Positions 12,652 to 30,746 of a stretch of 64,000 bases of DNA are shown here, in pieces. Made by a program: the position numbers and the translations under genes. Every line of letters begins with the position of its first letter. Positions within the stretch are counted from its first letter, which is position 1. The stretch is taken from positions 63,886 to 127,885 of the forward strand of contig JAYZEG010000011.1 in assembly GCA_036337435.1 (NCBI GenBank). The letters are read 5' to 3'. The notes below the pieces were generated by a model. The model saw nothing but the letters and a program-made list of their open reading frames with translations. It was not told the DNA's origin and searched no databases. The stretch comes from Myxococcota bacterium (GTDB taxonomy: Bacteria > Myxococcota_A > Bradymonadia > UBA7976 > UBA1532).

Positions 12652-14151
12652 TTAGCCAAGCCCAGGTAAATTGTCTTGTTGAGGATGCTTGTTGTATTTA
12701 GCGAGATACTCTTTGACCCGGAGTTTCCTGGCCGTGTTCGCACTGCTCATGAAACGAATTTTGCCGAAGATGGGCCGCTCAGGACCCCACGGTCGGTCAA
12801 ATCGGCCGAAAGTCCAACAAATGCCTGACCAGGAATTTGGATTTCGGCCATCTAAGGCGTACCGATTATTCAGTTCGACAATATAGTTAAAGGCGTCTTG
12901 TGGACTGGCACTCCACTCTATAATTTTTTTGCCCCAGAGCATTCTTAAATAGTTGTGTATATACCCTTCAGAGAGCAACTGGTGCTGCGCTGCATTCCAC
13001 AGTGGGTCGTGTGTTGTTCCCTGATCAAATGTGTCAAAATCATAGACGAACTCTCGTTTGTCTGATGCATGCACCGAGAGCGTTTCGATGGCCCATGGGG
13101 GTAAGGATTCGTATTGAAAGTAGTCGGAGGGATGTCTATGGCAGTAGACGTAGCCGAGTTCCCGCCACGTGATGATCTGGTCCAGGTAGCCTTCTACGCC
13201 CGGACTCAGGTTCCACCAGCCTGCGCGACTCCCTTTATTAACCCCTGAGGCGTCATCGATGGTCCAGTTTTCTCGGGTGAGAAGGTCTCTTACGATCCTG
13301 TGACTCGAAATATGCCCGAAATGCAGACGGGCTGACATGCGACTTGTACCGTTCTTCGATGGATGGTTCCGATCGGTATCGTACTGGTCTGCTCGGTTAT
13401 CGAGAAAACGGGCCCAACTGGCCAAAGCGGCAGTTTCCCCACCGGGCTCGTCGACACATCCAATTTTGTATCTTAACCCGCCGGGGATCAGCCCATCGTT
13501 GCACGTATCAGTACTGGACAAGGGTGCGGCTGGCCATTTCGTCTGAATGGGCTCTGGAACAGTTGCCCGTTGTGCAAAGCGACAATTTTGAAGGGGGTCT
13601 TCAATTGGAAAATTGTCTAAGAATTCTCTCATATTTTGCTGTAAAAAACGCCTAAACGAATAAGCCGTTTGGAATGTTCGCGGTGCATAGGCCAGGGGAC
13701 AGAGCCCATTGCCATCGACCAACTCAAAGCGGGCATGCACTTGTGGCGCGCTGGCTTCGACCATTCTGCTCAAAAAGTAACTTGGAAAGTGGTCTGTCAC
13801 GACGTGGACGGCCCTTTCCGAGAGAGATGACAAAAGGCCTTTTCCTGCATTTTTCTCGGGCTCGAGATAAGGGTAATAGGTGATATTGGCGGAGCGAAAA
13901 CGCTCTGCATTGGACCGCATCCCGTCGATCATATAGCTGGTGATACGGTCAGATGCCCAGGGATGGTCAAATCGTAGGGCTTCGAAAACCAAAAGGGGTT
14001 TGCTGTATTGGCGGCACAAATCGAGCGCGTATTGCAGAGCAAAGTTGTCTCGGGTGCGGCGCGCCGTTGTCATCCAATACAGAACATAATCGCGTTCCAG
14101 ATAAATCGGAGAGTCGTTGAGGGTTTTCAGTCGCAAAGACGGAATTGACAT
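12652..14151 (-). CDS. phr: Deoxyribodipyrimidine photolyase, class II CPD type
   Basis: YVLYWM..ARR..DNFAL, S.RLHFGHIS, THDPLWNAAQ, IHNYLRMLWGKK, DGRNPNS, FDRPWGPERPIFGKIRFM. Confidence 0.93.
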   Translation of the reverse strand: MSIPSLRLKTLNDSPIYLERDYVLYWMTTARRTRDNFALQYALDLCRQYSKPLLVFEALRFDHPWASDRITSYMIDGMRSNAERFRSANITYYPYLEPEKNAGKGLLSSLSERAVHVVTDHFPSYFLSRMVEASAPQVHARFELVDGNGLCPLAYAPRTFQTAYSFRRFLQQNMREFLDNFPIEDPLQNCRFAQRATVPEPIQTKWPAAPLSSTDTCNDGLIPGGLRYKIGCVDEPGGETAALASWARFLDNRADQYDTDRNHPSKNGTSRMSARLHFGHISSHRIVRDLLTRENWTIDDASGVNKGSRAGWWNLSPGVEGYLDQIITWRELGYVYCHRHPSDYFQYESLPPWAIETLSVHASDKREFVYDFDTFDQGTTHDPLWNAAQHQLLSEGYIHNYLRMLWGKKIIEWSASPQDAFNYIVELNNRYALDGRNPNSWSGICWTFGRFDRPWGPERPIFGKIRFMSSANTARKLRVKEYLAKYNKHPQQDNLPGLG

Positions 14152-14199
14152 GGGTACACATTGTCCTTGTTGTCTGCTTGTGGGCTGGAGTCGAGGCCG

Positions 14200-15135
14200 T
14201 CAGCTCGCGGTGGTTCTCATGGCCACGACGTCTCTAATGCGATTGGCCATTTCTTCAAGACCCAAGACCTCGCAGCCCGCGATGTCATTTCGCGCATCAG
14301 CACCACCAAGCCAAATTTGGATTTGGTCCGGTAAGATCGTTCGTAGGCGTCTGACGTAGGCGCGCTGGGTGCCCAACGGCACGTTGACCATCGACAAAGC
14401 AAGTGCGAATGGATGCTGTTTTAAAACGGCTTGGGCTACGATGTCGGCGGGTAACTGAGGCCCCAGGTTGATGACTTCTGCGCCGGCATCCGCCGCCACT
14501 CCAGCGGCGATCAAGAGACCAAGTTCGTGCTGTTCATCGTCAGGCGTTGTGAAGACAACCTTGGGCGCATTTGCGGGCGTCGAAGATGAATCGAATGTCC
14601 GCAATAACAGGCTCTTTAACGCTGCCGAGAGCAGATGTTCGGTCGCCATTGATATCTCGCCCTGCTCCCACAATGTGCCGACGCGTGTGAGCAAGACCCG
14701 GCAAAAGTGTGTTCTGAACGTTGAGGGTCCAAGTAAGCGGTATTGTATGCCCAAGCAGCGCTCAACATTTGTCGCGTCTAATTCCTTAGCATACCCGATC
14801 GCCTCCGTCACACTTCGGGGATCGAGAGTGACGTATTCGCCCTTTCGGGAGCTGCTTGGTCGTTCAACCGCTTTCGTCCGGACCGTCCCAGCGAGCTGTG
14901 CCAAAATCGCTTGGTCAAGCTCAACCAAGTCACTGATACGATGTCCGGCATCGACGGCAGCACCGAGAAGCTGAAACCGCTTTAGATGCGACTCAGTGTA
15001 TCGCCGTGTGCCTCCCTCGGATCGAAGGGGCGTCACAACGTTGTACCGTCGCTCCCACGCTCGGATCGTGTGCGCGCTCAAGTTTGCAAGTTGTGCGATC
15101 TTACCAATCGAGTATGTTTTCTGCTGCTCTGCCAA
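14200..15135 (-). CDS. carH: MerR-family B12-binding photoreceptor/repressor (CarH/CarA/LitR type)
   Basis: MerR HTH (IRAWERRY..V.P.RSEGG.RRY), W-x9-EH motif (WEQGEISMATEH), and B12 motif ExHxxG (EQHELG) followed by LGPQLP. TTG start. Confidence 0.88.
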   Translation of the reverse strand: MAEQQKTYSIGKIAQLANLSAHTIRAWERRYNVVTPLRSEGGTRRYTESHLKRFQLLGAAVDAGHRISDLVELDQAILAQLAGTVRTKAVERPSSSRKGEYVTLDPRSVTEAIGYAKELDATNVERCLGIQYRLLGPSTFRTHFCRVLLTRVGTLWEQGEISMATEHLLSAALKSLLLRTFDSSSTPANAPKVVFTTPDDEQHELGLLIAAGVAADAGAEVINLGPQLPADIVAQAVLKQHPFALALSMVNVPLGTQRAYVRRLRTILPDQIQIWLGGADARNDIAGCEVLGLEEMANRIRDVVAMRTTAS

Positions 15136-15168
15136 CGTCGAACCTGTTTCTGAAAGTGTTACAGTTTT

Positions 15169-15299
15169 AGTATAGCATACTTTAGACAGAATGGAATAAG
15201 TCTATACAAAAATATCGACAAAAGAATTTTTTGTATAGATTTAATGTTGACATGTCTAAGTTTGAACGGTAAAACCTAGACATGGTTAGCGTTTGTCTA
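15169..15299. promoter_or_regulatory. Divergent carH / ECF sigma promoter region with candidate CarH operator
   Basis: Plus strand TTGACA(15247-52)-17-TAAAAC(15270-75). Minus strand extended -10 TGcTATACT (15169-77). Perfect 12-bp inverted repeat TCTATACAAAAA (15201-12) / TTTTTGTATAGA (15228-39). Many TnnACA hexamers on both strands. Confidence 0.7.
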
Positions 15300-15441
15300 A
15301 ATAAACGACGCAAGCCAGTTGAGAAAGTCGCAGAACGCATTCGATGCCAACTGTTCCCATAGTGAACTGTAAGGCAGCGGTGTGGGCCACGTCCGGCTCA
15401 TTTGTCGGGCACAGCCAGCCAAAAAGAAAGGGCACGTTGCC

Positions 15442-16032
15442 ATGGGACGTCAAGCAAAGCCAGTCGTTGACACAAGCATCGTCGAAGCCGCTCAAGCGGG
15501 TGACTCGCGAGCTCTCGAGAAGTTGATCGGAGCGCACTATCCGGCGATGTGTCGCCTCGCTCTCCGCTATACCAACGACCCAGACCTGGCCAAAGATGCA
15601 GTGCAAGACGCGTGCATTCAGGTCATGCGGTATTTCCCGCAGCTGCGCGATACAAGCAGCTTCAAGTCTTGGATGAGCCGTATCGTCATTAACTGCGTCC
15701 GATTACACCAGCGTCGGAATAAGAGATTTGTCGCGTTTGGCGATGGTATTGAGCGGACCCAAGAAGTTTGCCAGCAACAACCCGACGAAGTGGTGATGAC
15801 CCGTGAAGAACTCGTCATTGTAGACGATTTTCTAAAGAGTGCCCAAAATGACGAACGGGCCATCTTTCTACAGCTTTACGTTGGCGGTGATGCGGTCGCG
15901 ACTGTAAGCGAAAAAACGGGCATCTCCGTCGCAGCACTGAAGACGCGCGTTCATCGAGCTCGGCGTCGACTTAAAAAATATATGCACACCAAGCATGACA
16001 CGGATCTTGGCTTTGGCCAAATGGGTCTCTAA
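15442..16032 (+). CDS. ECF RNA polymerase sigma factor
   Basis: AQAGD..ALE.L, DAVQDA, F.SW..RI..N, region 4 IS...LKTRVHRAR. ATG 15442 follows AAAGGG. Confidence 0.9.
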   Translation: MGRQAKPVVDTSIVEAAQAGDSRALEKLIGAHYPAMCRLALRYTNDPDLAKDAVQDACIQVMRYFPQLRDTSSFKSWMSRIVINCVRLHQRRNKRFVAFGDGIERTQEVCQQQPDEVVMTREELVIVDDFLKSAQNDERAIFLQLYVGGDAVATVSEKTGISVAALKTRVHRARRRLKKYMHTKHDTDLGFGQMGL

Positions 16033-16112
16033 GCGGGCGAGCAGTTACTGCTGGAGACGATAGAGCGCAACACGACGTATGCGCTGAGACCATATGTCAA
16101 CCGGGGGGATTC

Positions 16113-17084
16113 ATGGCATATTCGACTCAATCGAGCCCGGATTACGATAAACCACTACTCGGAATCAGCCGTTGTCTCCTCGGAGACACTGTCCGCTTTG
16201 ATGGCGGGCACAAACGGTCTCGCTACGCCGAGCAAACCCTCAGCCAGTATTTTCGATGGTACCCAGTCTGTCCCGAGGTTGAGTCTGGCATGTCTTCGCC
16301 CCGGCCCTCCATTAGGCAGGTTCGCGATGGAGGCGAGCTTCGTGTCGTGAGCGCGACGGGGGTGGATGTAACAGACGCGCTCAGGAAAGCGTCCGACAGG
16401 CGATTAGAGCAGATGCGTACAAAGCCGCTGCGCGGCTTTATCGTTGTGAATGATTCGCCGTCGTGCGGCCTGGAGCGCGTTCGAGTGTACGAGGGTTCTC
16501 ATCCCGTTCGCACCGGGGTTGGAGTGTTTACAGCAGCACTCAGGAATGCGTATCCCAATATGCCAGTCGAAGAAAGCGGTCGTCTCAACGATGCACGCCT
16601 CAGAGAGAACTTCATCCTGCGGGTCTATACATACCACCGGTTCAAAGAAATGGTCGACGATGGTCCATCGGTTTCCGATTTAATGCGATTTCACGCAGAG
16701 CACAAATACCTGTTGCTGGCCCACAATCCGTCGATGGCACGTCATCTCGGCGGACTGGTCGCGCAATGTTGCCGAGCAAACCTGGCGGCGGTACTGGCCG
16801 AATACGAGTCGGGTATGATGGATTCGCTGGCCAAACCTGCGAAAGTAGGAGGTCATGTCGACGCCCTTCAGCACATCGTTGGTTTCATATCCGACCAGTT
16901 CACTCCAGAGACAAGCCAGCACATGCAGGAAACCATCGCGGCCTACGGTTCTGGTGAAATACCGCTGATTACACCGATTACGTTAATCAATCACTATCTT
17001 GCGGTTGCCGGTACCGATTGGGTCCGGCGGCAGTGGTACCTCAAACCGTACCCAGCCGCGTTATCATTGCGAAGTCGGATCTGA
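16113..17084 (+). CDS. ybgA: DUF523-DUF1722 fusion (YbgA/RudS, thiouridine desulfidase family)
   Basis: GISRCLLG..VRFDGGHK, CPEVE.G, SPSCG, EE.GRLND..LRENF, FH..HKYLLLAH, YL.PYP. Confidence 0.9.
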   Translation: MAYSTQSSPDYDKPLLGISRCLLGDTVRFDGGHKRSRYAEQTLSQYFRWYPVCPEVESGMSSPRPSIRQVRDGGELRVVSATGVDVTDALRKASDRRLEQMRTKPLRGFIVVNDSPSCGLERVRVYEGSHPVRTGVGVFTAALRNAYPNMPVEESGRLNDARLRENFILRVYTYHRFKEMVDDGPSVSDLMRFHAEHKYLLLAHNPSMARHLGGLVAQCCRANLAAVLAEYESGMMDSLAKPAKVGGHVDALQHIVGFISDQFTPETSQHMQETIAAYGSGEIPLITPITLINHYLAVAGTDWVRRQWYLKPYPAALSLRSRI

Positions 17085-17085
17085 A

Positions 17086-18309
17086 TCAGGGCTGCATTGA
17101 GCCGAAGGTGAGCCTTACAGCACCACGGAGATTAGCCCGGAAACCGTGAACGATAACAAAATAGCGCGTCTGGGCTCGGGCGAAGTACTCCACGCGGCTC
17201 TGAAAACCATGGCCGCCATCATCGTCACAATACAGTTCCGTATCGATATCGCCACAGTTTGTCCGCACGGAGAGAACCGTATCGAACTCCGAGCCGCTGG
17301 TGTCGAGGAAAACCATTGCGTCATCCCGAGCAACAAAAGAGAACACTTGTTCTGACCCTCTCCCAGATTGTCCGCAGTTCGCATCGAGTTCATCTGCTGA
17401 ATCCGCATTTGAACCCCAGTAGACACCGAACGTGTCCATTTCTATCGCGTCGATACAATTGTTAACGGTCTGCATCTGGCCGTCTGCTGGATCTGACCTA
17501 TGGATACTGCCGCTTGAATCCATCCGATTGTTTGCAACGCAAATGCGCTGTTGGCAGTCCGGTTGAGTTGTATGGCAGCCACACCTTTGAGTCGCTGGAC
17601 AATCGGCGTCGAGACTACATTGTGCTTGGCAGGCTGCGTTCAAACAGATTGAACCAACGGGACAATCGGTCACCGCCGAACAGGCTTGATTAAGGGAAGT
17701 CCGCGATACGCAGAGTCCATCTCGGCAATGCTCTGTAGGTCCGCAGTGTTCGTTAAGTGAACAGCAGAGTTCGTTGTCGAAGCCTTCGTCGCTTATGCCA
17801 TCGCAATCGTTGTCGATGCCGTCGCAAACTTCCACTGATGCTGTGGCTGTGCCTGTTTGGCATACCGCCCCTACTTGGTTTGTTGAACACACAAGTTCGC
17901 CCAATGCGGTGCACCTATTTGCAAGCTGTGCCGAGCAAAGGGAACCAAGATAAAAAGCCTCATCAGTCTGGCCATCACAATCATCATCGTGGTCGTTACA
18001 AAACTCAATTCCTTGCCCGCAGGCACTCCAAATACCATTTACACATTGTCTCACACCACACCTGTCCAAGCAGGGTATGCGGTCACCTGTCGCGCAGGTG
18101 GAATCCGAGGTGGCGCGGCCGCTGGGTGTGCTTCTTTCTGTTGGCGAATCAATGAAGGTCAAGCCAGTGCTCTCGAGACTCGCATCGCGTTCATTTTGAA
18201 GGGACGGGGCTCCTTGCCTCAACGAATTTTCATCGAGTCCTGAAAACTCAGCGCAACCGATTGATGCCAAAACGACTAGGGGTGACAATAACCGGCGCAT
18301 CATTTCCAT
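17086..18309 (-). CDS. Cys-rich exported protein with MopE-type putative metal-binding repeats and a C-terminal PPC-like domain
   Basis: Lipobox SIG-C; EFCNDHDDDCDGQTDE and EVCDGIDNDCDGISDE; DTSGSEFDTVLSVR..C.....CDDD. Confidence 0.75.
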   Translation of the reverse strand: MEMMRRLLSPLVVLASIGCAEFSGLDENSLRQGAPSLQNERDASLESTGLTFIDSPTERSTPSGRATSDSTCATGDRIPCLDRCGVRQCVNGIWSACGQGIEFCNDHDDDCDGQTDEAFYLGSLCSAQLANRCTALGELVCSTNQVGAVCQTGTATASVEVCDGIDNDCDGISDEGFDNELCCSLNEHCGPTEHCRDGLCVSRTSLNQACSAVTDCPVGSICLNAACQAQCSLDADCPATQRCGCHTTQPDCQQRICVANNRMDSSGSIHRSDPADGQMQTVNNCIDAIEMDTFGVYWGSNADSADELDANCGQSGRGSEQVFSFVARDDAMVFLDTSGSEFDTVLSVRTNCGDIDTELYCDDDGGHGFQSRVEYFARAQTRYFVIVHGFRANLRGAVRLTFGSMQP

Positions 18310-18370
18310 CCTCCATGGGGGTCACTTCTTGTAGGTAAAGAGAGAAACCCAGTATCTCCCACTGGATGGC

Positions 18371-18399
18371 AATATTCTTACGATCGGTAGATTTGTCAA
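18371..18399 (-). promoter_or_regulatory. Sigma70-like promoter with an AATCTACC half-site in the spacer
   Basis: Minus strand TTGACA-AATCTACCGATCGTAAG-AATATT, upstream of the 18309 start. Confidence 0.45.
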
Positions 18400-18601
18400 G
18401 CTGTAAACAGAGGTTTTCTATTTTGAAGGGGATTGCCCGCTGGAGTCTCCGATTGGGTTTTCCGCTTGCTTACGTTCAGTCATGGGTGTCGCATGAGCGA
18501 TAATGGACATGTAAAGACCCTGCTACGGGAGTCTGGCTGCTCAAAAGCATATGATCATGGCAGAGGGTGCTGGGACACTTGTCATTAGAAATGGTCCGCC
18601 C

Positions 18602-19423: not shown

Positions 19424-19491
19424 GTGGAGTCCCTCAGTATTCGTTACTACTGATAAACTCTACGTTTGGGTCGACGTTCCTTACCGCGTTT

Positions 19492-20082: not shown

Positions 20083-20116
20083 GTTTTAATCTCTCAAAAT
20101 TGGGGGAATTGGGGAC

Positions 20117-21298
20117 CTAATTGGCCGTCGCGAGCTTTGCTTCGACAACCTGCGCAATGGAACGAGTTTTGTGAATCGCAACGAGTTCAAGACCAGCCGC
20201 ATTGAGCAGGCTCTCAAATTCCGCTGGAGTACGCTCTTTACCCGCAAACATAGTCATCATCAGGAGGTCGATAGTCGTTCGTCCTCGTTCCATGTTTGAC
20301 CGTTGTTTGTTAGCGGCACGACCCAGCTCGATCAAAATAATACGACTGTCTTGACTGGTCATTGCTGAAGCCAGGTTCGTTAAGATCTGCTCGCACTTTG
20401 AATCAGACCAATCGTGCAGAATGTTTCTCAGAACAAAGGCTGCACCGGCTCCGATTTTAGGAATTGTATCGTGATCGAAGAAGTCGCCACTCTGAAAGTT
20501 TAAGCGCCCTGACGAATTTTCGCGATGATCGGATAGTGCACGCTTGCTCTCCTCAATGACTTTGGGGAGGTCAAAGATGGTTGCATTGAGTTTCGTATAC
20601 TTGTCCATCAACGGGAGAATAAAGGACCCTTGCGACCCGCCAATATCGATCACGCTGTCAAAACGAGACCAGCTGAAGTCGTCCATGACCGCGCGATCTG
20701 TAAAGGCGCTGCTGGCTGTCATCGCATTCGCAAATTGAGCATGACTCGTGGGTCTCGCCTCCAGGTAATCAGAGAAGAAATCCATGCCGGGTTGCTCATG
20801 GTACAGCTCAAAAGCTGATGCTTGCGAATTTAAGGCGTCCAATAGACGTGTCGAAGGCCCGTAGCAATCTTCGACCCAGTGAAAGAGTAATGGACGAATC
20901 GTATTTGGATGACTCTGGATTAAGACTTCGGTTTTTGCTGTGTTCATCCACCGCGCAGTCCCCATAGACCGTACTATTTTGAAGTACCCCTGCTGACAAA
21001 GGGCGTGCATCAAACGTTCGATCCGATCAGGACAGGCATCCACTGTGTTTGCGATCTCTGCACTGGTCAGGGCGCGGCGATGGAGCATCTCAGGGATATT
21101 TAACTTTGCGACGGCATACATCCACTGTGGCAGCATGAACATAGATGCATCCATGAGAGCCTGAACGGGGGCGGGCCGAAATCCGAGCCAGTTTAAAAAT
21201 CGAAACAGCCACTTCGGTGGTAACCAGCGTAACTGATCTCGGAACGCTAGCGGTTGGCTGTCGGACCCAGACGGATCGATTTTCGAGGTGGTTAACAC
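20117..21298 (-). CDS. SAM-dependent O-methyltransferase, family 2 (dimerisation plus MTase domain)
   Basis: VIDIGGSQG, FDLP.VI, GDFF, RNILHDWSD, GKERT..EF..LL..AG. Confidence 0.9.
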   Translation of the reverse strand: MLTTSKIDPSGSDSQPLAFRDQLRWLPPKWLFRFLNWLGFRPAPVQALMDASMFMLPQWMYAVAKLNIPEMLHRRALTSAEIANTVDACPDRIERLMHALCQQGYFKIVRSMGTARWMNTAKTEVLIQSHPNTIRPLLFHWVEDCYGPSTRLLDALNSQASAFELYHEQPGMDFFSDYLEARPTSHAQFANAMTASSAFTDRAVMDDFSWSRFDSVIDIGGSQGSFILPLMDKYTKLNATIFDLPKVIEESKRALSDHRENSSGRLNFQSGDFFDHDTIPKIGAGAAFVLRNILHDWSDSKCEQILTNLASAMTSQDSRIILIELGRAANKQRSNMERGRTTIDLLMMTMFAGKERTPAEFESLLNAAGLELVAIHKTRSIAQVVEAKLATAN

Positions 21299-22154: not shown

Positions 22155-22235
22155 TGCTTCCTTCTTTCAAACAGGCTTTCTGTGTTGCGATGTGTAACGC
22201 ATCGATTATTCGTCGTCGGCGCTTGTAGCCGAAAT

Positions 22236-23534
22236 TTAACTTAAGTCCAAGGTTCTTGTTGCACCACTTTGCTCATGACCCAGCGCTCGCGCAGTGTTTT
22301 CGAGCCGATTTTGTCCTTGGCTGCGCAGCGGCATAACCAGTCCTGCTAAGAAAGCTGGGACATGCTGCAAAGGGAGTTTCCAGACTGCGCGTTTACCCAT
22401 ATTGGCTTCGAGAAAATGAGTGAGCAGTCCCGGGCTACGTGATAACCCGCGGATCGCCAACCGTCTTAGGAGGGGCACTCTCGCCAACACGAGTGCCAGC
22501 TTGACCATGCGTACACTTTTCCAGTAAATCCGAAAAATGCGCCGGCCAAGACCGCTTAGGTCATCCGCACCTAATCGATTGGTTCGCACCAATATTGGGA
22601 GCTCATGTGCTACAACCTCTGCCTGCTGTAATGCCACGGAAAGGCCCTCTCCCGTGATGCCGTCCACGTAGCCCAGGGCATCACCCAACAGAATAGTTCG
22701 ATCTTGGGTTGCAACCTTTGCTTGGACTGCCAGTGGGCCCGTTGCTTGTTGATTAGATACGGTCTTACATCCGCTCACTCGTCTTTCTAGTTGGGGAAAG
22801 TTCTTTAACAGAACGGACATCAGATTTCGTCCAGCTCGGGCCGGTTTAAAACGTGATTTATCCCAAAGAAATGCGACTTCGACACGACTTTCAGACGAGG
22901 GTGTAACGTAAGCTTCTATTCCATTTGACCAATACACTTCGACGTGATTTGTCCACGGAGTAACCTGAAAGTGTTGGCGCGCGCCCCAACGCTTGTCCCT
23001 CACCGCTGGAGAACCGTCGAGTTTCAATAGTTTCCTGACTTTCGAATTTCGGCCGTCTGCACCGATCACGACAGCGGCTTTCATTCCGAACTGGCCGTCG
23101 ATACCGCGAAGTTTTATATCAACATGGGATTCGAATGATTCGATAGCCAGAAGCTGAGTCGACTCCATCAGGGTTACGTAAGGGCTGTCTTGGGCCGCCT
23201 TGTAAAGTGCATCGCTCAGTCCTGTTCTACGAATGCCATAACCAACCCCGCTGTCGAAGTTTGCTTGCGCGATCGCACCTTGGTCACAAATCCAGCGTAT
23301 GCCATAAAATGCCCGGAGTGAATCATGATCGATCTGTTCGAAGATCCCCATTCGGTCTAGCGTTTCGACGCCACAAGGCATCAGGCCTTCGCCACAAACT
23401 TTATCGATTGGCCATTGCTTCTTGTCGACAACCGTTACGAACAGCCGCCTTTTCGCGAGGGCTATCGCACAGGCGAGCCCGGCAGGACCGCCTCCGACGA
23501 TGACAACATCCACTTTTCGTTGGGTAAGACTCAT
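22236..23534 (-). CDS. FAD-dependent monooxygenase/oxidoreductase (FtpE/SrsC-like)
   Basis: GGGPAG, DKVCGEGLMP, GADG..S.VR, LLGDA.GYVD.ITGEG; last gene of the PKS operon. Confidence 0.88.
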   Translation of the reverse strand: MSLTQRKVDVVIVGGGPAGLACAIALAKRRLFVTVVDKKQWPIDKVCGEGLMPCGVETLDRMGIFEQIDHDSLRAFYGIRWICDQGAIAQANFDSGVGYGIRRTGLSDALYKAAQDSPYVTLMESTQLLAIESFESHVDIKLRGIDGQFGMKAAVVIGADGRNSKVRKLLKLDGSPAVRDKRWGARQHFQVTPWTNHVEVYWSNGIEAYVTPSSESRVEVAFLWDKSRFKPARAGRNLMSVLLKNFPQLERRVSGCKTVSNQQATGPLAVQAKVATQDRTILLGDALGYVDGITGEGLSVALQQAEVVAHELPILVRTNRLGADDLSGLGRRIFRIYWKSVRMVKLALVLARVPLLRRLAIRGLSRSPGLLTHFLEANMGKRAVWKLPLQHVPAFLAGLVMPLRSQGQNRLENTARALGHEQSGATRTLDLS

Positions 23535-23538
23535 GGAA

Positions 23539-25302
23539 TCACCGCGTTCGCTCGACAAGCCTGATGTGGCTTGCTCGATGTCGAATGTGTTGAACCAAAC
23601 CACTGCCCATCTCTTTGAGGATGAGCCCACGGGTTACTTTTTTTCCAGCACTTAAGGTGCCGTTAAGCCAGCAACTTCGCGCTTCGCTGCGCCTAATTTT
23701 ACCCGATGAGGTTCGTGGTAATGTGCCGGGGTCAAGTAATTCGAATTCGGATACGGACAGACCCACGCCGGCCTGAACCGCTGCAATGGCTTCATTGACC
23801 ACGGCGTCTGCATCCACATGCTCTCGCCCTTTTTCGGCCAGCAGAATCAATCGCTCACTACCGGCCTGCTCGTCATGAACTCCAAAAGCAGCGACACAAC
23901 CAGGTCGAATTCCATCAAGACCATCCAGGGATTGTTCGACGAGTGCGGGGTCATGATTTCGACCGTTTATGATGACGATGTCCTTTTCGCGACCGCACAG
24001 ATACAGCTCGCCATTCAGAATGAAGCCTGTGTCTCCCGTATCGAGCCAGCCATCCTCGTCCAACGTCTCAGCGGTCGCATCCGGTCGGTTGAGGTAGCAT
24101 TGCATGACGCCCGGACTCTTCACGTGGACACGTCCGACTCGTGCGTCCGAGAGTTTGGCTCCGTCGCCGTTGCGAACTTCGATAGAGCAGCCGGCGAGTG
24201 GTTTACCGAGGGATGGAATTTGGCGACCGTCCGCCGTGATTTCCGCGATCCCTGATTGTTCCAACCGGTCTGCATCGAAATGGGTCCATTGTGGCTTCTG
24301 GTTGGGTTCTGAAAAGGTGACGGCCAGCGTCGCTTCCGCAAGGCCATAAACGGGCGTGATTGCGGTCGAGTCGAAGCCGACAGCCGAGAATCGACTTGAA
24401 AACTCCTCCAGGGTTCGCGGATGAACTGGCTCTGCTCCACACAGCGCCACTTTCCAGTTCGCTAGATCGAGGCCATCCAAATCGCAATCACGGGTCTTGT
24501 TCGCTGTGAGTCCGAAAGCAAAATTGGGAGCCACCGATATTGTCGCCTGGCTTTCAGACAGAGCTTGGAGCCAACGAACCGGTTTGGTCACAAACCGTTC
24601 TGGACCGAGCAGGGTCAGTGGCGATGAACTCACAACGGCCGAAATCATACAGCCAACGAGCCCCATGTCATGATAGAGCGGCAACCAACTGACACCGCTC
24701 CGTTCATCAGCGGCAACCGGTAGGGCGTCTAAAATGGCGCGCGCGTTGTACAGGATGTTTTCATGGCTGAGAGCCACCGGTTTCGGATCACCGGTGCTGC
24801 CGGAGCTGAACTGGATGGCTGCAATATCTGCGGCGGGTGCAGTCGGCGTGTATCCAACATGGCCATTTTTCTGCAGCTGCGCCACAGTGTGACAGCCGAG
24901 TTTTGGATCCGCCATTCGCACAGGGGTCCCCAAAAGGGGCATCAACCGCTTATCGGTCAAAACGGCAGCGCACTCTACTGAAACCAGCATCTTTGCCGTG
25001 CGAATCTTCCACTCTTCGACTTTACCCAGTCGCGCTGGTGGATAGAGCGCCGTCGGCACCCCACCGGCAATGCAAACGCCGAAGAACGCTGCATAGAATT
25101 CTGGACCGGTGCCGAGAACAATGGCCACGGTGTCTTTAGGCTTTAGACCGCGATGGACCAAACTGTCTGCAACGGCGCGTGCGCTTTGCATTAAAATTTC
25201 GTAGCGATAAAACTGTGACCGGCCCGGATCAGACCAAAAGGTTACGCCGCTGACCCCCAGACTGGCTCGCTCTAAAGCTTGAATCAGCGTGTCAGCTTGC
25301 AT
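23539..25302 (-). CDS. Fatty acyl-AMP ligase (FtpD-like)
   Basis: QFSSGSTGDPK, SWLPLYHDMGL, APNFAF, YGLAEATL, TGDTGF, LPRTSSGKIRR; adjacent to an ACP gene. Confidence 0.92.
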   Translation of the reverse strand: MQADTLIQALERASLGVSGVTFWSDPGRSQFYRYEILMQSARAVADSLVHRGLKPKDTVAIVLGTGPEFYAAFFGVCIAGGVPTALYPPARLGKVEEWKIRTAKMLVSVECAAVLTDKRLMPLLGTPVRMADPKLGCHTVAQLQKNGHVGYTPTAPAADIAAIQFSSGSTGDPKPVALSHENILYNARAILDALPVAADERSGVSWLPLYHDMGLVGCMISAVVSSSPLTLLGPERFVTKPVRWLQALSESQATISVAPNFAFGLTANKTRDCDLDGLDLANWKVALCGAEPVHPRTLEEFSSRFSAVGFDSTAITPVYGLAEATLAVTFSEPNQKPQWTHFDADRLEQSGIAEITADGRQIPSLGKPLAGCSIEVRNGDGAKLSDARVGRVHVKSPGVMQCYLNRPDATAETLDEDGWLDTGDTGFILNGELYLCGREKDIVIINGRNHDPALVEQSLDGLDGIRPGCVAAFGVHDEQAGSERLILLAEKGREHVDADAVVNEAIAAVQAGVGLSVSEFELLDPGTLPRTSSGKIRRSEARSCWLNGTLSAGKKVTRGLILKEMGSGLVQHIRHRASHIRLVERTR

Positions 25303-25555
25303 CTCGCATCTCCGACTGTCGGTATAAAATAAGGCGCGCGATATCGTCGACAGTTTCGGGTGGATTATCTGCATCTTCACCCAGATACATTTCGAATTCG
25401 TTCTCTAATTCGAGGGCCAAACTCAGGAGACCGACACTATCCAATCCGAGATCAGCTTGTAGCCTCGCCTTTGGTCCCACCAAGCTTCGCTCCACCCCGC
25501 AGTGTTCTTCGAGTATGTTTTTGATAACCATCAGGCAATCGGCATAGGTACTCAT
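25292..25555 (-). CDS. Acyl carrier protein (FtpC-like)
   Basis: 87 aa, acidic, with the DLGLDSV phosphopantetheine site. Confidence 0.9.
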   Translation of the reverse strand: MSTYADCLMVIKNILEEHCGVERSLVGPKARLQADLGLDSVGLLSLALELENEFEMYLGEDADNPPETVDDIARLILYRQSEMRDAS

Positions 25556-26130
25556 GACGTCCGTCCAATCGGTAAAAAGCGATTTTTATTTTCAAACGTT
25601 GCCTCATAATTATTAAGTCGGCTGAGTTCTCTCTCTTCCGTTCGGATGCGCACCAGTAGCAACCATGCGTTTGCGATGCTGAAAACAGCGGCCGTAATCC
25701 AGCCATTGAAAATAAGTGGAAGAGCCGCGATCTCGAGTACAACCCCTAAATAATTGGGGTGTCGGATGAATCGGAAGATGCCCTCGTTAACGACTCGAGC
25801 GTGAGGCAACACAATGATCCGTGTGGTCCATCGAGGGCCTAGCGTTTTAATGGCGATCAGCCGCAGCGCTTGACCCGCAATGAGCAAAGCGAGTCCCGTG
25901 ACAACGAGAAAGACCGGTGGGGTTTGATTTCGCCATAGTGCTTCACCAACGCAGGCGAAAAGCCAAATGGTATGAAGGCTTGCCATCACAGGGTAGTGTC
26001 CTGACCCGACCTCGATTGCACCTTGTTCCAAAAGGCGCTTCGTATTGTGTTTTGACAAGCGCAGTTCAAGTAACCGCTGGACCGAAACGACCAGGACGAG
26101 TCCGATGTATAGTGTCGTGCTTGCAATCAT
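25552..26130 (-). CDS. ICMT-family membrane methyltransferase (FtpB/SrsB/BpsB-like)
   Basis: QRL.EL..S..N, GA.E.G..HY..M..LH, LG.RW.TRI, RHPNY, RI..EE. Confidence 0.9.
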   Translation of the reverse strand: MIASTTLYIGLVLVVSVQRLLELRLSKHNTKRLLEQGAIEVGSGHYPVMASLHTIWLFACVGEALWRNQTPPVFLVVTGLALLIAGQALRLIAIKTLGPRWTTRIIVLPHARVVNEGIFRFIRHPNYLGVVLEIAALPLIFNGWITAAVFSIANAWLLLVRIRTEERELSRLNNYEATFENKNRFLPIGRTS

Positions 26131-27194
26131 CAGTGCACCGTTTCTAACAAATTAAGCTCTGCGCAAAAGGCCGGGCCCATCGCAGCCATCATGCCAACCG
26201 AGCCGGCCGGCGGTAGATTCTTCATGCGTTCTCTAAGTACGAATAAAACTGAGGACGAACTCATATTCCCGTACCGAGCCAAACTGTCCCAAGACAGCGC
26301 CAGCGCATCTTCATCCAGACCTAACGCAGTCTCCATCGCCTTCATCACTTTGGGGCCGCCTGGGTGGGCTACGAGGAAATCGGGTCTCGCTTGCTCTAGG
26401 CCGGAATCGGCCATCAGTGCCTCCACCTCGGATGGGAGTTCTTCCGCGACGATCTTGGGTACGTCGGGTGACAGGACGACTTTGAACCCGCTGTCAACAA
26501 CGTCCCAGCCCATCACCCGTTCAGTGTCCTGAAAGAACGCTGACCTTGGGTTAGACCATCTGAGCGGTGCTGTTGCAGCCAGTGGGTGTTCATCTCCAAC
26601 CATCAAGACAGCCGCACAGCCGTCACCAAACAGACCAGAGGCAACAATGTTGGCCACTGACAAATCCTGTTTCTGGAGTGTGAGCGAACACAGTTCCACG
26701 GAGACCAGCAACGCCGCTTGATCTGGATGCCCGTCCAGATAGTCACCGACGCGATTAATACCTGCGACACCGGCTAGACACCCTAAACCGAACAAGGGCA
26801 TCCGCCGCGTGTCACGCCGGAACGGGAGTTGATTCATGAGACGCGCATCTAAGCTGGGTACGGCGAGCCCCGTGACGGTGGTACTGACGATCGCGTCAAT
26901 GTCACTTGCATCTAGGGCCGCTGCGTCAAGCACTTTAGCGACCGCTTCTGTTGCCATCGGAACGGCGGCTTTGACCCACGCGGTATTGAACGATCCAAAG
27001 CCGGATAGCTCCTGGTATGCTTCCAGGGGGATTGCCAAATGTCGGCCTCCGACGAGCACATTACGTTGGAAGTCAATGATGCGCTGCGGATTAAAATACC
27101 GTTCCCGCCAGTCCGCCATCAAAGCGTCTGTGAGTTGATCCTGATCATAATAGTGCGGTGCAAGGCTGCACTCGACGCTGTGTATGTACGGCAT
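26130..27194 (-). CDS. Type III polyketide synthase (FtpA/SrsA-like)
   Basis: Catalytic triad Cys (GLGCLAG), His (AHPGG), Asn (YGNMSS); also LFGDG and AMGP.F. Confidence 0.95.
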   Translation of the reverse strand: MPYIHSVECSLAPHYYDQDQLTDALMADWRERYFNPQRIIDFQRNVLVGGRHLAIPLEAYQELSGFGSFNTAWVKAAVPMATEAVAKVLDAAALDASDIDAIVSTTVTGLAVPSLDARLMNQLPFRRDTRRMPLFGLGCLAGVAGINRVGDYLDGHPDQAALLVSVELCSLTLQKQDLSVANIVASGLFGDGCAAVLMVGDEHPLAATAPLRWSNPRSAFFQDTERVMGWDVVDSGFKVVLSPDVPKIVAEELPSEVEALMADSGLEQARPDFLVAHPGGPKVMKAMETALGLDEDALALSWDSLARYGNMSSSSVLFVLRERMKNLPPAGSVGMMAAMGPAFCAELNLLETVH

Positions 27195-27277
27195 GGTCAG
27201 GATCTCCCCTCTTCAGTGGCAAAACCGAGAACGATGAAGCCGGACTGACCCCTGCTCCGAACCGATTTTCCGCATAT

Positions 27278-27322
27278 AATCTACCGTCCGGAAGATTAAT
27301 TGTCAACATTTTGTCTAGGTTT
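27278..27322 (-). promoter_or_regulatory. PKS operon promoter with 11-bp-spaced TnnACA repeats
   Basis: Minus strand AAACCTAGACA-AAATGTTGACA-ATTAATCTTCCGGACGG-TAGATT: a perfect -35 TTGACA, 17-bp spacer, -10 TAGATT, with TAGACA and TTGACA 11 bp apart. Confidence 0.7.
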
Positions 27323-27431
27323 AATGGATAAATCTATGCAAAAACCTGTTCGAAAAATTATTTAAGTTAGTTAACGCCGTGCCGTCCAACCCGACATCGG
27401 TTGGCAGGACGCATGCTCAAGTCATCGTATC

Positions 27432-28172
27432 TCAGCAACCGCCTTCGGTATTCAGCCTGAAAATTTTGGTTGCTATTCCTTGATACATGACAGAACTAAA
27501 TGGTTGCTGCCCAAATGTAAAACCGCCTTTCCATCCCACGGGACCAATTCCGGTTTTTCGTTCAATTTTTGCCCCATCTTTTCTGAGCCATGATTCTAAC
27601 TCGTTGGGTTTAATAAACTTTTTCCAGTCATGGGTGCCTTTAGGAACCACCCCAATTAAATTTTCAGCAAGTGTAATCATGACAACTTTCGCTAAGAAAG
27701 TTCGGTTTATGCAGCTGAAGAAGAGCCGTCCGCCTGGTTTCAAAACGCGGAGTATTTCTGTCAGTACAACCCGTGGATCGTCGACATGGACGAGGACGTC
27801 TGTGCAGATGACCAGGTCGAACACCTCATCTCCGAAGGGGAGTTTTTCCGCTGCCCCAACTCGGTAGTCGACATGCAAACCATCCTGTTCAGCTTTGTTA
27901 CGCGCTGCCTGAATGGCACCAGCTGCTGAATCGATACCGGTCACGTGGGCACCGGCCTTGGCGACCAGCGTGCTTAAAAAACCTCCGCCACAGCCGACAT
28001 CCAATAGGTGCATGCCGAACGGGTCGACGAAACGCGACAGGTAGGCCATGCGAGGATGAGCCAGACGGCGTAAAGGGTCGAGTAGAGTGGCCTCTTCATC
28101 CCACCATGGATCCACTTGATCGTAGATCGTGAGGTCATTTCGAATCACTTTTGGTTGGCGTATCATAGACAT
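27432..28172 (-). CDS. UbiG-like SAM-dependent O-methyltransferase
   Basis: NDL.IYD....WW, LLDVGCGGG, LKPGG......INRT, GTHDW.KFIKP.EL. The real start is about 28172/28166, not 28661. Confidence 0.85.
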   Translation of the reverse strand: MSMIRQPKVIRNDLTIYDQVDPWWDEEATLLDPLRRLAHPRMAYLSRFVDPFGMHLLDVGCGGGFLSTLVAKAGAHVTGIDSAAGAIQAARNKAEQDGLHVDYRVGAAEKLPFGDEVFDLVICTDVLVHVDDPRVVLTEILRVLKPGGRLFFSCINRTFLAKVVMITLAENLIGVVPKGTHDWKKFIKPNELESWLRKDGAKIERKTGIGPVGWKGGFTFGQQPFSSVMYQGIATKIFRLNTEGGC

Positions 28173-28195
28173 CCGGTCGTGATAGAAAGTCGTGG

Positions 28196-28633
28196 TTAGT
28201 GAGTCGCGCGTCGGGCTAGGCTGGGTGCCCACAACCGCTCTGAGGTTTGTGCGGCAAGCCAGTTGCCCGTCGGTATAAAAGCGGCAAAGAATAATGTCAT
28301 CGCGAGGGAGAAGTTTCGCTCTCCCAACAGCGTGTCGATGATGTTGCCCTGAAATGCAATCGATGTCTCGAAAGCGTATCCACAGATTTCCAGAAGGCCA
28401 AGTACCAGAAGTCCCCACAAATACTGGTCGAATGCGGGTTTCGTACGGCACACGATCGATGCAGGAATGAGGTAGAGACCGTAACACGTCAGAACCTGCC
28501 ACCAGTTGGCAAACATGGCTATTTCCGCGTATTGGCCAATGGCGTTCATTGTAAAGCCCAGGGGTATATAAACCACAACATAAGCCAGCAATAGTCGCTT
28601 GGGTACGTCTAGTCGGTCGATCACATTGCGCAT
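28196..28633 (-). CDS. Hypothetical integral membrane protein (about 4 TM)
   Basis: GGAG RBS before ATG 28633; hydrophobic segments; directly upstream of the UbiG-like gene. Confidence 0.65.
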   Translation of the reverse strand: MRNVIDRLDVPKRLLLAYVVVYIPLGFTMNAIGQYAEIAMFANWWQVLTCYGLYLIPASIVCRTKPAFDQYLWGLLVLGLLEICGYAFETSIAFQGNIIDTLLGERNFSLAMTLFFAAFIPTGNWLAAQTSERLWAPSLARRATH

Positions 28634-28675
28634 GGGTCGCTCCACGAATCCGAAAGGACACACATTATACACATA

Positions 28676-28720
28676 AATCTACCAATTGGAAGGTTTTTGT
28701 TTACATTTTTGTCCAGATTT
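28676..28720 (-). promoter_or_regulatory. Promoter/operator paralogous to the PKS promoter
   Basis: Plus strand aatctaccaattggaaggtttttgtttacatttttgtccagattt aligns end to end with 27278-27322 (aatctaccgtccggaagattaattgtcaacattttgtctaggttt). Confidence 0.65.
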
Positions 28721-29364
28721 CTTCATCAGTGAGTATTCGCCAACTGCGATCCAGGCAGTCAGAGGTCCGTTTGTGGTGGTCATCTTTGGGGTCTTGTTTG
28801 CCAACAAACAGTCATATCAGCGACGCGCTCGATTAAAGCCTACTGAAATTTAACACGGCCACGTAGTGACGTTTCGAAGACTGAAAGCGAAAAGACCCTC
28901 TCCAGGTCACTGGGCGGTGAATGAAAACCGTGCCAGCGTTCGTCGCTCTAGCTGAATCGCACAGCAGTCCGAACGAGTCGATGCACACTGGGGCCGCTCT
29001 TCGCAACCGTCCCATTCGCACACCAGAACGATCGCAGCAGGCATAAACGCTGCGTGACGGCCCGCTGAGACGCTGTCGGTTTGCCCACACTCCATCGGGA
29101 ACCTAAAGGCACTTCCCATCAGCAGATCCAATCATCGTTATCCGCCAGGTCTCAATCCAGGACGACATACAGTCTGTCTTCGATCTGTTACAGTTTCGAT
29201 GTAGACCGAGATGGAGGGTCAGTTCAGTCGAACGATCCGCGGTGGCCCAGACGCATTCTGCAACAGAATGTCTGGTAACCTTGGCGCATTGGACCGCATC
29301 TGCACAGTGGACCAGCCGTAATGTATATATCCGGCGTGTTATTTTTGTCAGGACCAGCGTGCTT

Positions 29365-30258
29365 ATGAACAGTCTAGTGACCGGCGCAACCGGTTTAATC
29401 GGTCAGGCCCTTATCAAACGACTCGACGACCCGGTCCTCATGTCTCGTCGACCGGAGGCATTGGCATCTGGGTCTCGTCTGAAATGGCCTGTGGACGCCG
29501 GCACCGCGGCACCCGATCGGGCTGTTGACGTGGTTTTTCACCTTGCGGGAGAACCGGTTGCCGGACGTCGCTGGACTCAACAGCGCATGGATGAAATACG
29601 AAACAGCCGTGTTGATGGGACTCGGCAGTTGGTTTCCTGGATTGCCAACTGGCCGTCGGCGCCAAAGGTGCTTGTCTGCGCGTCGGCTATCGGATTTTAC
29701 GGAGACCGGGGAGACGAAATTCTCGTCGAGAACAGTCAGCCAGGGTCGAGTTTTCTCGCCGAGCTGTGCCAGGACTGGGAAGCAGAGGCGGCGAAAGCCG
29801 AGGCCCTTGGCGTGAGAGTTGTCTTTGCACGAATCGGGATCGTCCTAGCCAAAAACGGCGGCGCCCTAGAAAAAATGCTGCCGCCGTTTAAGATGGGCAT
29901 AGGTGGGCCGCTCGGGAGCGGGCGCCAATGGATGTCGTGGATTCATCTGGATGACGTTGTCGGTCTTCTCCTCCATGCGGCACACGCCGATATATCGGGA
30001 CCACTCAACACAGTCGCCCCCCAACCCAGCACAAATGCCGACTTCAGTCGAGTCTTAGCGGGCCACCTCAGTCGCCCGTCAGTACTGCGCGCCCCGGCAT
30101 TCGCCCTAAGGCTGGCCTTAGGGAAAATGAGCGACATTGTCCTCGCGTCCCAAAAAGTGCTGCCGCGGGTTGCTGAAGAAACTGGCTACGTCTTTCAACA
30201 GCCCACACTCGATGGGGCGATTAAATCATGTCTAAGAATCAAGGGAGAACAGCCGTGA
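29365..30258 (+). CDS. TIGR01777 family epimerase/oxidoreductase (YfcH-like)
   Basis: VTGATGLIG, HLAGE, SAIGFYG, LC.DWE, GG.LGSG.QWMSWIH. Confidence 0.92.
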   Translation: MNSLVTGATGLIGQALIKRLDDPVLMSRRPEALASGSRLKWPVDAGTAAPDRAVDVVFHLAGEPVAGRRWTQQRMDEIRNSRVDGTRQLVSWIANWPSAPKVLVCASAIGFYGDRGDEILVENSQPGSSFLAELCQDWEAEAAKAEALGVRVVFARIGIVLAKNGGALEKMLPPFKMGIGGPLGSGRQWMSWIHLDDVVGLLLHAAHADISGPLNTVAPQPSTNADFSRVLAGHLSRPSVLRAPAFALRLALGKMSDIVLASQKVLPRVAEETGYVFQQPTLDGAIKSCLRIKGEQP

Positions 30259-30746
30259 CGATTGAGCCCAATGGAAACGAATATATCCTTCATCAGGAAC
30301 AGTTCATCGCCCAACCGCTGAGCGAGGTGTGGGCCTTTTTTTCGAACGCAGAAAACTTAGAACGTCTGACACCCGATTTCCTCAACTTCAAAATATTGAC
30401 ACCGACCCCAATCGACATGTTCGAGGGCACTTTGATCGATTACCGCATTCGGCTTTTCGGTGTCCCCATGAATTGGCGTACCGAGATCATACATCTCGAA
30501 CCTGAGGTGCGCTTCGTAGACCAGCAACTCAAGGGACCCTACGCAAAGTGGTACCATGAGCATCGATTTGAGGAGGTTGACGGTGGTACGCTGATGACCG
30601 ACCGGGTCGAATATCGAGTTCCTTTTTCAGCCCTAGGACATCTGGCTCATTCGGTGATGGTAAAGCGCACTTTGCAGCGTATCTTTCAATATCGATATGA
30701 CGCCGTGAGTGAGGTCTTCGGCGAGCCGTCCGAGCAAGCTGCCTAG
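30255..30746 (+). CDS. SRPBCC family protein
   Basis: FFS...NL..LTP, F.D.Q..GPY..W.H.H.F, M.D.V.Y; GTGA overlap with the previous stop. Confidence 0.9.
   Translation: MTIEPNGNEYILHQEQFIAQPLSEVWAFFSNAENLERLTPDFLNFKILTPTPIDMFEGTLIDYRIRLFGVPMNWRTEIIHLEPEVRFVDQQLKGPYAKWYHEHRFEEVDGGTLMTDRVEYRVPFSALGHLAHSVMVKRTLQRIFQYRYDAVSEVFGEPSEQAA

Follow-up and report, generated by a model that had tools for sequence, protein, structure and literature searches.

A phenolic-lipid operon that appears to be controlled jointly by a B12 light sensor and a second repressor in a marine genus of Myxococcota

The light locus and the polyketide operon

We describe a 64 000-nucleotide stretch of DNA from a Myxococcota bacterium (hereafter the window; positions 63886–127885 of contig C11 of assembly G000, which comprises 4.38 Mb in 95 contigs and is 87% complete) in which a gene for a B12-binding regulator of the CarH type lies 11 kb from an operon built around a type III polyketide synthase (PKS). 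Taken together, the observations reported below indicate that a B12 light sensor appears to control a phenolic-lipid pathway, jointly with a second and unrelated repressor, in a marine genus without detectable sun-protective carotenoid genes. Three other genomes of the genus were compared: G001 (100% complete), G002 (81%) and G003 (89%; contamination 7%). The PKS carriers are G000, G002 and G003 (81–89% complete), and G001 has no PKS. Two further loci were also used, namely L118, a metagenome contig whose PKS is 93% identical to that of the window and which is a close match to G002, and L122, a locus from another species which shares its arrangement of a second carH paralogue and a PKS with locus L051 of G003. 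The regulator of the window is referred to as CarH1 and the second paralogue of G003 and L122 as CarH2.

CarH1 (14200–15135, minus strand; 311 amino acids) consists of a MerR DNA-binding domain and a B12-binding domain, as judged from signature motifs and PDB matches. The motifs RxWERRY, W-x9-EH and D/E-x-H-x2-G-x41-S-x-T/V-x22-27-GG define CarH against CarA in PMC9304148, and each is intact: RAWERRY at residues 25–31, W156 with E166 and H167, and a complete B12-binding motif (E201-Q-H203-E-L-G206, x41, S248-M-V250, x25, G276-G277). The W-x9-EH discriminator is also found in CarH2 of G003 and L122. The best PDB matches of CarH1 are the Thermus thermophilus CarH/LitR structures 3whp and 5c8d; its score against the NCBIfam CarH profile is 92.7, far under the equivalog cut-off of 400. 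By this full set of signatures CarH1 is a candidate photoreceptor, predicted to bind adenosylcobalamin (AdoB12) and to be released by light. It is the sole carH of the G000 assembly, which also encodes two AdoB12-dependent enzymes, methylmalonyl-CoA mutase and a fused mutase.

Directly downstream of carH is a class II CPD-like DNA photolyase gene (12652–14151, minus strand; Pfam photolyase/FAD_binding_7; TIGR00591 at 325 bits, below cut-off), a gene order that is the same in G001, G002 and G003. Across the divergent promoter region lie genes for an extracytoplasmic function (ECF) sigma factor (15442–16032, plus strand; Pfam sigma70_r2/r4_2), in what we infer to be a LitS-like position, and for a YbgA-like protein with a 2-thiouracil desulfurase domain and DUF1722 (16113–17084, plus strand; Pfam). 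Pairs of carH and ECF genes are recurrent across the class.

The polyketide operon is encoded on the minus strand. Its PKS (26130–27194) has the triad C139/H277/N310 together with W230, identified by PDB search and invariant columns, and all four residues align to the best PDB match, PKS11 of Mycobacterium tuberculosis (E 2.5e-87). The following genes encode an ICMT-family methyltransferase (25552–26130; Pfam ICMT), which we take to be SrsB/BpsB-like, an acyl carrier protein (ACP) with an LDSV motif (25292–25555; Pfam), a fatty acyl-AMP ligase (FAAL; 23539–25380; best NCBIfam match PRK09192 FAAL at 454 bits, below cut-off) whose true start is probably about 80 nt downstream of 25380, and a FAD-dependent oxidoreductase of the GG-reductase/UbiH-like superfamily (22236–23537; all NCBIfam matches below cut-off), a probable hydroxylase. 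All of the components of a FAAL/ACP-primed type III PKS cluster are therefore present in a single run. Upstream of the PKS, on the same strand, are a UbiG-like O-methyltransferase (27432–28166; TIGR01983 at 177 bits, above cut-off) and a 145-residue membrane protein (TM; 28196–28633), which has no Pfam or NCBIfam match and belongs to an unnamed family that is common in Bacteroidota (Atlas 0.96 to unnamed clusters). A COMT-type O-methyltransferase (20117–21298, minus strand; Pfam Methyltransf_2 and dimerisation domains), a possible tailoring enzyme, is absent from the matching G001 locus.

A preliminary description of the window had placed the operon between photolyase-carH-ECF-ybgA and TIGR01777-SRPBCC. 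This order is confirmed, with a TIGR01777 (YfcH) oxidoreductase (29365–30258, plus strand; NCBIfam) and an SRPBCC protein (30228–30746, plus strand; Pfam) on the far side, but five further genes separate ybgA from the FAD-dependent oxidoreductase (a lipoprotein, a hypothetical protein, a fasciclin, the COMT-type O-methyltransferase and a Gly-rich lipoprotein). The likeness that it saw between PKS-ICMT-ACP-FAAL-oxidoreductase and the M. xanthus ftp/alkylpyrone cluster also holds: the order PKS-ICMT-(ACP)-FAAL-oxidoreductase recurs in Myxococcus, Pyxidicoccus and Corallococcus loci, with about 50% PKS identity and a shared W230. The window PKS differs in grouping apart from theirs, with marine and Bacteriovoracaceae sequences in a supported clade (43 rows), and its cluster differs in having the extra UbiG-like, membrane-protein and O-methyltransferase genes. 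The Trp equivalent to W230 has been linked to resorcinol-type cyclisation in ArsB, FtpA, SrsA and PKS10/11 (PMC5916927; PMC6274091), and alkylquinones arise by oxidation of such resorcinols in Streptomyces griseus and M. xanthus (PMC10896814). Given the ICMT, UbiG-like, O-methyltransferase and UbiH-like enzymes, the likeliest product would be a methoxylated alkyl(hydro)quinone.

Two kinds of candidate operator at the PKS and TM/UbiG promoters

The PKS promoter reads TTGACA-17-TAGATT and matches the sigma-70 consensus at 10/12 positions. As the preliminary description had noted, the hexamers TAGACA (27317–27312) and TTGACA (27306–27301) start 11 bp apart over the −35 region on the minus strand; TTGACA (27301–27306) is the −35 hexamer itself and also the second CarH repeat core. 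The best CarH-like site, AAACCTAGACAA (27311–27322, minus strand; 16.1 bits), lies 11 bp upstream of the −35 core and is identical in L118, while an inverted site, AAATCTATGCAAA (27330–27342, plus strand; 10.9 bits), appears there as AAATCTAGACGAA at equal spacing. The L118 promoter thus retains AAACCTAGACAAAA unchanged together with the inverted site, and its upstream flank has diverged. CarH operators comprise three to four tandem 11-bp repeats with TnnACA cores, or one to two perfect repeats with pseudo-repeats, placed over the −35 or −10; the PKS promoter has two perfect cores and one inverted site. The 11-mer AAACCTAGACA, which was said to be shared with the promoter opposite carH, is indeed found at 15272–82 (plus) and 27312–22 (minus), and there are four copies in the whole assembly. 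The carH/ECF region itself contains nine TnnACA cores in 15130–15450, and CarH-like sites of the AAWCTAKACA type, facing either way, are clustered at 15160–15300 (motif scan); these cores are conserved in G000, G001, G002 and two G003 loci.

The CarH-like sites were scored with a matrix built from 12 sites of the G001 and G003 carH promoters only, with TGTATA ghost hits dropped, on 1153 intergenic regions of G000 (from crude ORF calls), the score of a region being that of its best two sites within 100 bp. The carH/ECF region ranked first (30.3), the PKS promoter second (27.0) and the TM/UbiG promoter third (22.6), followed by the next region at 20.9. No dinucleotide shuffle out of 1000 reached the two-site score of the PKS promoter, and the same was true of the TM promoter (0/1000); the sites of the PKS promoter are thus better than expected by chance. 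Because the 12 training sites had been chosen with a pattern informed by the window motif, the test was repeated with unguided expectation maximisation (EM) in 12 settings. The carH/ECF region ranked first in 12/12 and the PKS promoter second in six and 7–16 in the other six; the TM promoter ranked 5–49, and a control promoter with only the second motif described below (at 18.4 kb) ranked 135–946. An earlier matrix, whose training included G002 and some palindromic ghost sites, had placed the PKS promoter 4th and the TM promoter 124th of 3314 clusters in a whole-genome scan. When the regions upstream of 154 PKS genes were scored, only those of the window (27.0) and L118 (28.0) exceeded 13, the next best reaching 12.3. 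The sites in six carH-crt loci of the family were not clearly picked out (best single sites 7.5–12.5 bits), which makes this matrix genus-specific. No CarH-like cluster was found with it upstream of the TIGR01777 gene (p 0.15).

The second motif is a TetR-type palindrome resembling the AibR operator. At the PKS promoter it reads AATCTACCG-NN-CGGAAGATT (27278–27297; 25–26 bits), covers the −10 and spacer, is kept in L118, L122 and L201, and is present in all four PKS promoters of the genus. The promoter therefore probably has two inputs. The motif, with the consensus AAWCTACCR-NN-YGGTAGWTT, has 23 sites of at least 17 bits in G000, followed by a gap to 15.4; 19/23 are intergenic by the same crude ORF calls. 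The reversed genome gave one site and 15 permuted matrices gave 0–6. Six sites lie in the window (at 2802, 3760, 7858, 18374, 27278 and 28676) and 17 outside it, and a matrix built without the window sites recovers all six. The dyad is conserved in G001, G002, G003, L118 and L122; in a phylum-level sample the exact pattern was found in 10/151 genomes, mostly as single sites, and in 0/11 other genomes of the family. Its annotated neighbours are mostly secreted hydrolases and unknown lipoproteins, but also include PFK, TauD-like, aldo-keto reductase and methyltransferase genes. The copy at 18374–18393 (22.5 bits with the matrix lacking window sites), in the promoter of the lipoprotein gene 17086–18309, is conserved in G002 and G001 and has no CarH-like cluster, thereby serving as an internal negative control. 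Of the 23 dyad promoters, only those of the PKS (16.1) and TM (14.7) carry a CarH-like site above 11 bits. The dyad is absent from the ECF promoter (best score −0.9).

In M. xanthus, AibR is an isovaleryl-CoA-sensing TetR protein with the operator ACCTACCG-2N-CGGTAGGT (PMC5389471). The G000 dyad is nearly the same and follows the CTACCG-N2-CGGTAG pattern; however, AibR controls two loci, whereas the G000 dyad occurs at 23 sites with hydrolase and lipoprotein targets. The targets annotated to date are not an aib operon, although one is a Zn-oxidoreductase with a match to 5k1s. The dyad is presumably bound by a TetR-family repressor, for which L305 (on contig C81) and L311 are candidates. L305 has a K-x3-Y-x-H-x3-K helix pattern like K47/Y51/H53/K57 of AibR; genes for a biotin carboxylase and methylmalonyl-CoA mutase lie upstream of it, and the dyad precedes two of its relatives in G003. 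Sites of a similar kind are present in the promoter of L311 itself. Of the seven G000 TetR proteins these two were searched against the PDB and neither was a clear AibR orthologue: AibR (5k7f) is a weak match to L305 restricted to the DNA-binding domain (E 3.7e-6) and is not listed for L311.

The two motifs explain the less successful parts of the preliminary description. The frame AATGTTGACA-N13-ACGGTA, proposed as shared between the PKS and carH-opposite promoters, does occur exactly twice in the genome, at 15243–71 (plus) and 27282–310 (minus), but at the PKS promoter its ACGGTA half coincides with the dyad's right arm. As a CarH signature the frame is ruled out, the ECF promoter being without the dyad and the left half being AAACTTGACT in L118. 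Likewise, the paralogous 45-bp element before the TM and UbiG-like genes is real and aligns with the PKS promoter (about 28670–28720), but much of it is the dyad (28676–95), and the two CarH-like TnnACA cores beside it (28710–15 and 28698–703; element 28676–28720, minus strand, motif scan) are 12 bp apart and not 11. Frame and element are therefore a blend of two operators.

Carotenoid genes and the second carH-PKS linkage

No crtB match was found in the window, in agreement with the preliminary description, or in the G000, G002 and G003 genomes. Neither crtY nor blh was found in G000, and neither rhodopsin nor a close crtI in G000, G002 and G003. Control of carotenoid genes, the classical mark of CarH, is thus not seen in G000 at its 87% completeness. 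In the family crtB is present in 16/27 genomes, and carH lies within about 3 kb of it in six of those 16. The statement that the operon sits where carotenoid genes usually sit therefore stands at the family level, but not within the genus. G001 has the same light locus, acyltransferase-SRPBCC-TIGR01777...ybgA-ECF and carH-photolyase, with a CAP-domain gene in the slot of the PKS block, which marks the block as a variable insert. Its crt genes are found only in a rhodopsin-blh-crtY-crtI-crtB-crtE retinal cluster (L110:2535–9815, on G001 contig C42), where the CarH1 matrix gave no significant sites. We accordingly reject the idea that the PKS occupies the slot of crt genes.

In G003 (L051) and L122 the gene order is (TM)-UbiG-carH2-PKS, carH2 being flanked by the UbiG-like gene and the PKS, with all three on one strand. 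CarH2 is 27% identical to CarH1 with all signatures intact; the two CarH2 proteins are 69% identical to each other and closer (about 36–44%) to CarH of other families in the class. Its history may be one of independent recruitment or of loss from G000 and G002. Upstream of carH2 in both loci are four tandem 11-bp repeats, TTTGAnWnnnT, for which a period of 11 is the best among periods 8–14 (shuffles 0/300 and 1/300), and the PKS promoters of both show weak repeats over −10/+1. As regards synteny, which the preliminary description had proposed to check, a second linkage was thus found in the genus, but none in the 16 other PKS genomes of the class, and wider carH-PKS synteny is rejected. Four loci of G003 (L095, L096, L051, L100) comprise two of CarH1 type, each with ECF and photolyase genes, carH2 before the PKS, and a MerR protein without B12 motifs adjoining a DUF1722 gene; with 7% contamination, some of these may be binning artefacts.

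Proposed regulation and its alternatives

In the scheme that we propose, the PKS-ICMT-ACP-FAAL-oxidoreductase operon and the TM/UbiG pair would have dual-input promoters. In the dark, AdoB12-bound CarH1 would occupy the AAWCTAKACA-type repeats upstream of and over the −35 and block sigma-70 RNA polymerase; in light the Co–C bond would be broken and CarH released, freeing the operon together with carH-photolyase and ECF-ybgA. The second input would be metabolic, a TetR-family repressor occupying the AibR-like palindrome that spans the −10 and spacer, as it would at some 20 further promoters, with a ligand that is probably an acyl-CoA. FAAL would load a fatty acid onto the ACP, and the PKS would extend it and, through W230, cyclise it by aldol chemistry to an alkylresorcylate or alkylresorcinol, which the methyltransferases and flavoenzyme would convert to a membrane-located, methoxylated alkyl(hydro)quinone. 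This product would probably serve to buffer light-driven oxidative damage in cells without the carotenoid cluster of the family.

Several observations weigh against this scheme. The link is confined to one genus: a class-wide search (113 genomes) found carH nearby in 0/16 PKS-bearing genomes outside it, and carH was seen at just two PKS loci out of 160, each of them in this genus, although many of those loci are short, with flanks of at most 10 kb, and an arrangement like that of the window (carH 11 kb from the PKS) would go undetected there. The sister clusters L119 and L120 carry neither the CarH-like nor the dyad motif. The operator is non-canonical, with one strong site, and has just two TnnACA cores in tandem, one of which doubles as the indispensable −35 hexamer and reads TTGACT in L118; compared with it, the dyad is stronger and more highly conserved at the same promoter. 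The CarH1 matrix gives no significant score for the PKS promoters of G003 and L122 (p 0.054 and 0.168), and with the CarH2 matrix only that of L122 is significant (0/300; G003, 27/300). G000 and G002 yielded no adenosyltransferase of the PduO or CobA type, PduO being present in G001 and G003. As G001 is complete and has the light locus without the PKS, the PKS is not needed by all members of the genus, and at 81–89% completeness the absence of crt genes from the PKS carriers is not proven.

The simplest alternative is that the operon belongs only to the regulon of the AibR-like TetR protein, as part of a feeding or acyl-CoA response, the CarH-like sites being AT-rich look-alikes and the block simply having landed in the light locus. 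The dyad is real by its reversed and permuted controls and is kept in every PKS promoter of the genus; with 6/23 dyads in the window the region is a patchwork of this regulon; the block is a variable insert, the sister cluster L120 has its own TetR gene, and the CarH motif includes the −35 core and the reverse of TAGATT. Against it, the PKS and TM promoters stand out among the dyad promoters by their CarH-like sites and rank second and third of 1153 with independent training, conservation in L118 is exact outside the −35 and −10, and a second carH paralogue lies directly before the PKS in two species. We regard control by the TetR protein alone as unlikely. Light control might instead be indirect: repression by CarH would be limited to the carH and ECF promoters, and the PKS would be transcribed by the ECF sigma factor, with TTGAY-N15-CGRTARA as the sigma signature. 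Only seven copies of this pattern occur in the genome, five of them intergenic, and the ECF and PKS promoters are among these; all five ECF promoters in the alignment retain CGRT ahead of the −10, and LitR-LitS cascades exist in Streptomyces (PMC11519972). The PKS promoter is, however, a good sigma-70 match whose CGGTA is explained by the dyad, and a GTAACC element upstream of the fasciclin (323) and TIGR01777 genes is, on weak grounds, a likelier ECF target; an ECF-mediated route seems to us very improbable. In our view, the ranks obtained with independent training, the conservation of the footprints and the second carH-PKS linkage support CarH control of the PKS and TM/UbiG promoters; the interpretation given in the preliminary description is partly supported, as some of the motif evidence that it cited belongs to the dyad. 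Direct control of the PKS operon by CarH in this organism is, on these sequence data, moderately probable.

It is a separate matter whether the product protects against light. CarH could control the operon while the product is an alkylquinone carrier, a membrane modifier or an alkylpyrone for lit surface water, with light serving as a habitat cue, or CarH could act as a sensor of B12 status. Related clusters make respiratory polyketide quinones in mycobacteria and resistance lipids in S. griseus (PMC12766979; PMC5916927), the tailoring genes are UbiG-like and UbiH-like, and G001 has the light locus without a replacement pigment pathway. Yet the regulon mates photolyase and YbgA are photo-stress genes, LitR regulons elsewhere drive an antioxidant-lipid synthase (PMC9758184), and alkylresorcinols are antioxidants that raised peroxide resistance in Escherichia coli (PMC13730376). 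We consider these other roles rather unlikely as the explanation of the locus and, given CarH control, photoprotection somewhat more likely than another role. The fullest version of our proposal, in which control by the B12 photoreceptor has shifted from carotenoids to an ftp-type polyketide pathway, through a different CarH paralogue in each of two lineages, and in which light and an acyl-CoA-sensing TetR protein form an AND gate for an alkylhydroquinone antioxidant that replaces carotenoids, is put forward as a tentative possibility.

Comparison with known systems and minor observations

CarH1 resembles the CarH/class I LitR proteins of T. thermophilus, Bacillus megaterium and Myxococcales, as presented in PMC9304148, in its domain layout, its three motifs, TnnACA repeats over the −35 and photolyase/ECF neighbours, and the four repeats of the carH2 array in G003/L122 recall the four 11-bp repeats given there for B. 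megaterium. The system differs in that the target is a type III PKS operon and not crt, in the second repressor site overlapping the promoter, and in the CarH1 sites, which are pairs 11 or 12 bp apart with inverted copies and not three to four clean tandem repeats. Class II LitR proteins of Pseudomonas (PplR/PmlR; PMC9758184) share T(G/A)TACA cores and control photolyase and a lipid-modifying enzyme, UfaM, which synthesises furan fatty acids, and the targets listed for them include no carotenoid genes; in contrast to CarH1 they lack a full B12 domain and use a LOV anti-repressor, N12 spacing and a modified fatty acid as output. That source thus already documents a LitR-family regulon in which photolyase is combined with an enzyme for an antioxidant lipid, and the new part would be the native link between CarH and a type III PKS. 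The preliminary description knew of no such link, and our literature search, which extended neither to key subscription papers nor to supplements, found none; LitR gene-neighbourhood tables in supplements could hold a precedent. The sole co-occurrence of CarH/LitR and a type III PKS in the literature searched is an engineered light-inducible vector driving rppA (PMC11519972). No carH was found within the flanks (at most 10 kb) of the Myxococcaceae PKS loci examined.

The B12-dependent CarH regulons in the same literature all end in carotenoid genes. A PKS output, if true, would widen the role of this photoreceptor, and phenolic or quinone lipids would be an alternative bacterial photoprotectant in the sea, although the carH-PKS claim is sequence-based and limited to one genus. 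Five clusters are conserved across Myxococcota, and all but the alkylpyrone/type III PKS cluster have a known ecological function (PMC12766979); the rewiring and AND-gate reading, if correct, would supply a first ecological role for this conserved myxobacterial 'alkylpyrone' cluster. With a small promoter, a single-gene regulator and a pathway of five to eight genes, the whole system is within reach of reconstruction in M. xanthus or E. coli. The AibR-like regulon with its 23 sites offers a further lead, on global regulation in a group without cultured members.

Three seawater metatranscriptome runs from two studies gave short, patchy contigs that include pieces of the PKS, FAAL, oxidoreductase and PKS promoter; they are too sparse to show how strongly, from which strand or in what relation to light the genes are transcribed, and they may stem in part from carried-over DNA. 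The GTAACC element mentioned above is conserved at about 210–245 and 29272–29300 in G000 and G002/L118; it is a possible promoter of the CarH-controlled ECF sigma factor, with weak support from motif scoring. Near the light locus are genes for a renalase-like flavoprotein (8042–9010) and a double fasciclin (323–1456), families that are frequent in photo-oxidative stress regulons, and carH lies beside fasciclin genes in G035, G048 and G060. A conserved inverted repeat resembling a stem-loop (27386–27404), found by sequence comparison after the UbiG-like gene, is a candidate terminator. A second UbiG-like paralogue in G000 (contig C90, L281:2651–3918; 42%) is likewise preceded by an unannotated gene (190 amino acids). 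The sister PKS clusters (L120:5600–5795 and L119:200–321; 72–73% identity) share the word CTAGTCAG upstream, and the TetR gene of L120 directly follows its oxidoreductase. On contig C123 of G018, about 37 kb separate an ECF-carH pair from a divergent type III PKS (28% identity). Elsewhere in the window, the Gly/Ala-rich part of a lipoprotein is encoded by 9-bp periodic repeats (21768–22117) whose copy number differs among G000, G001 and G002, and a gene for an MbnB/TglH/ChrH (DUF692-type) RiPP-modifying enzyme (56244–57952) is followed by an unannotated gene of 273 amino acids.

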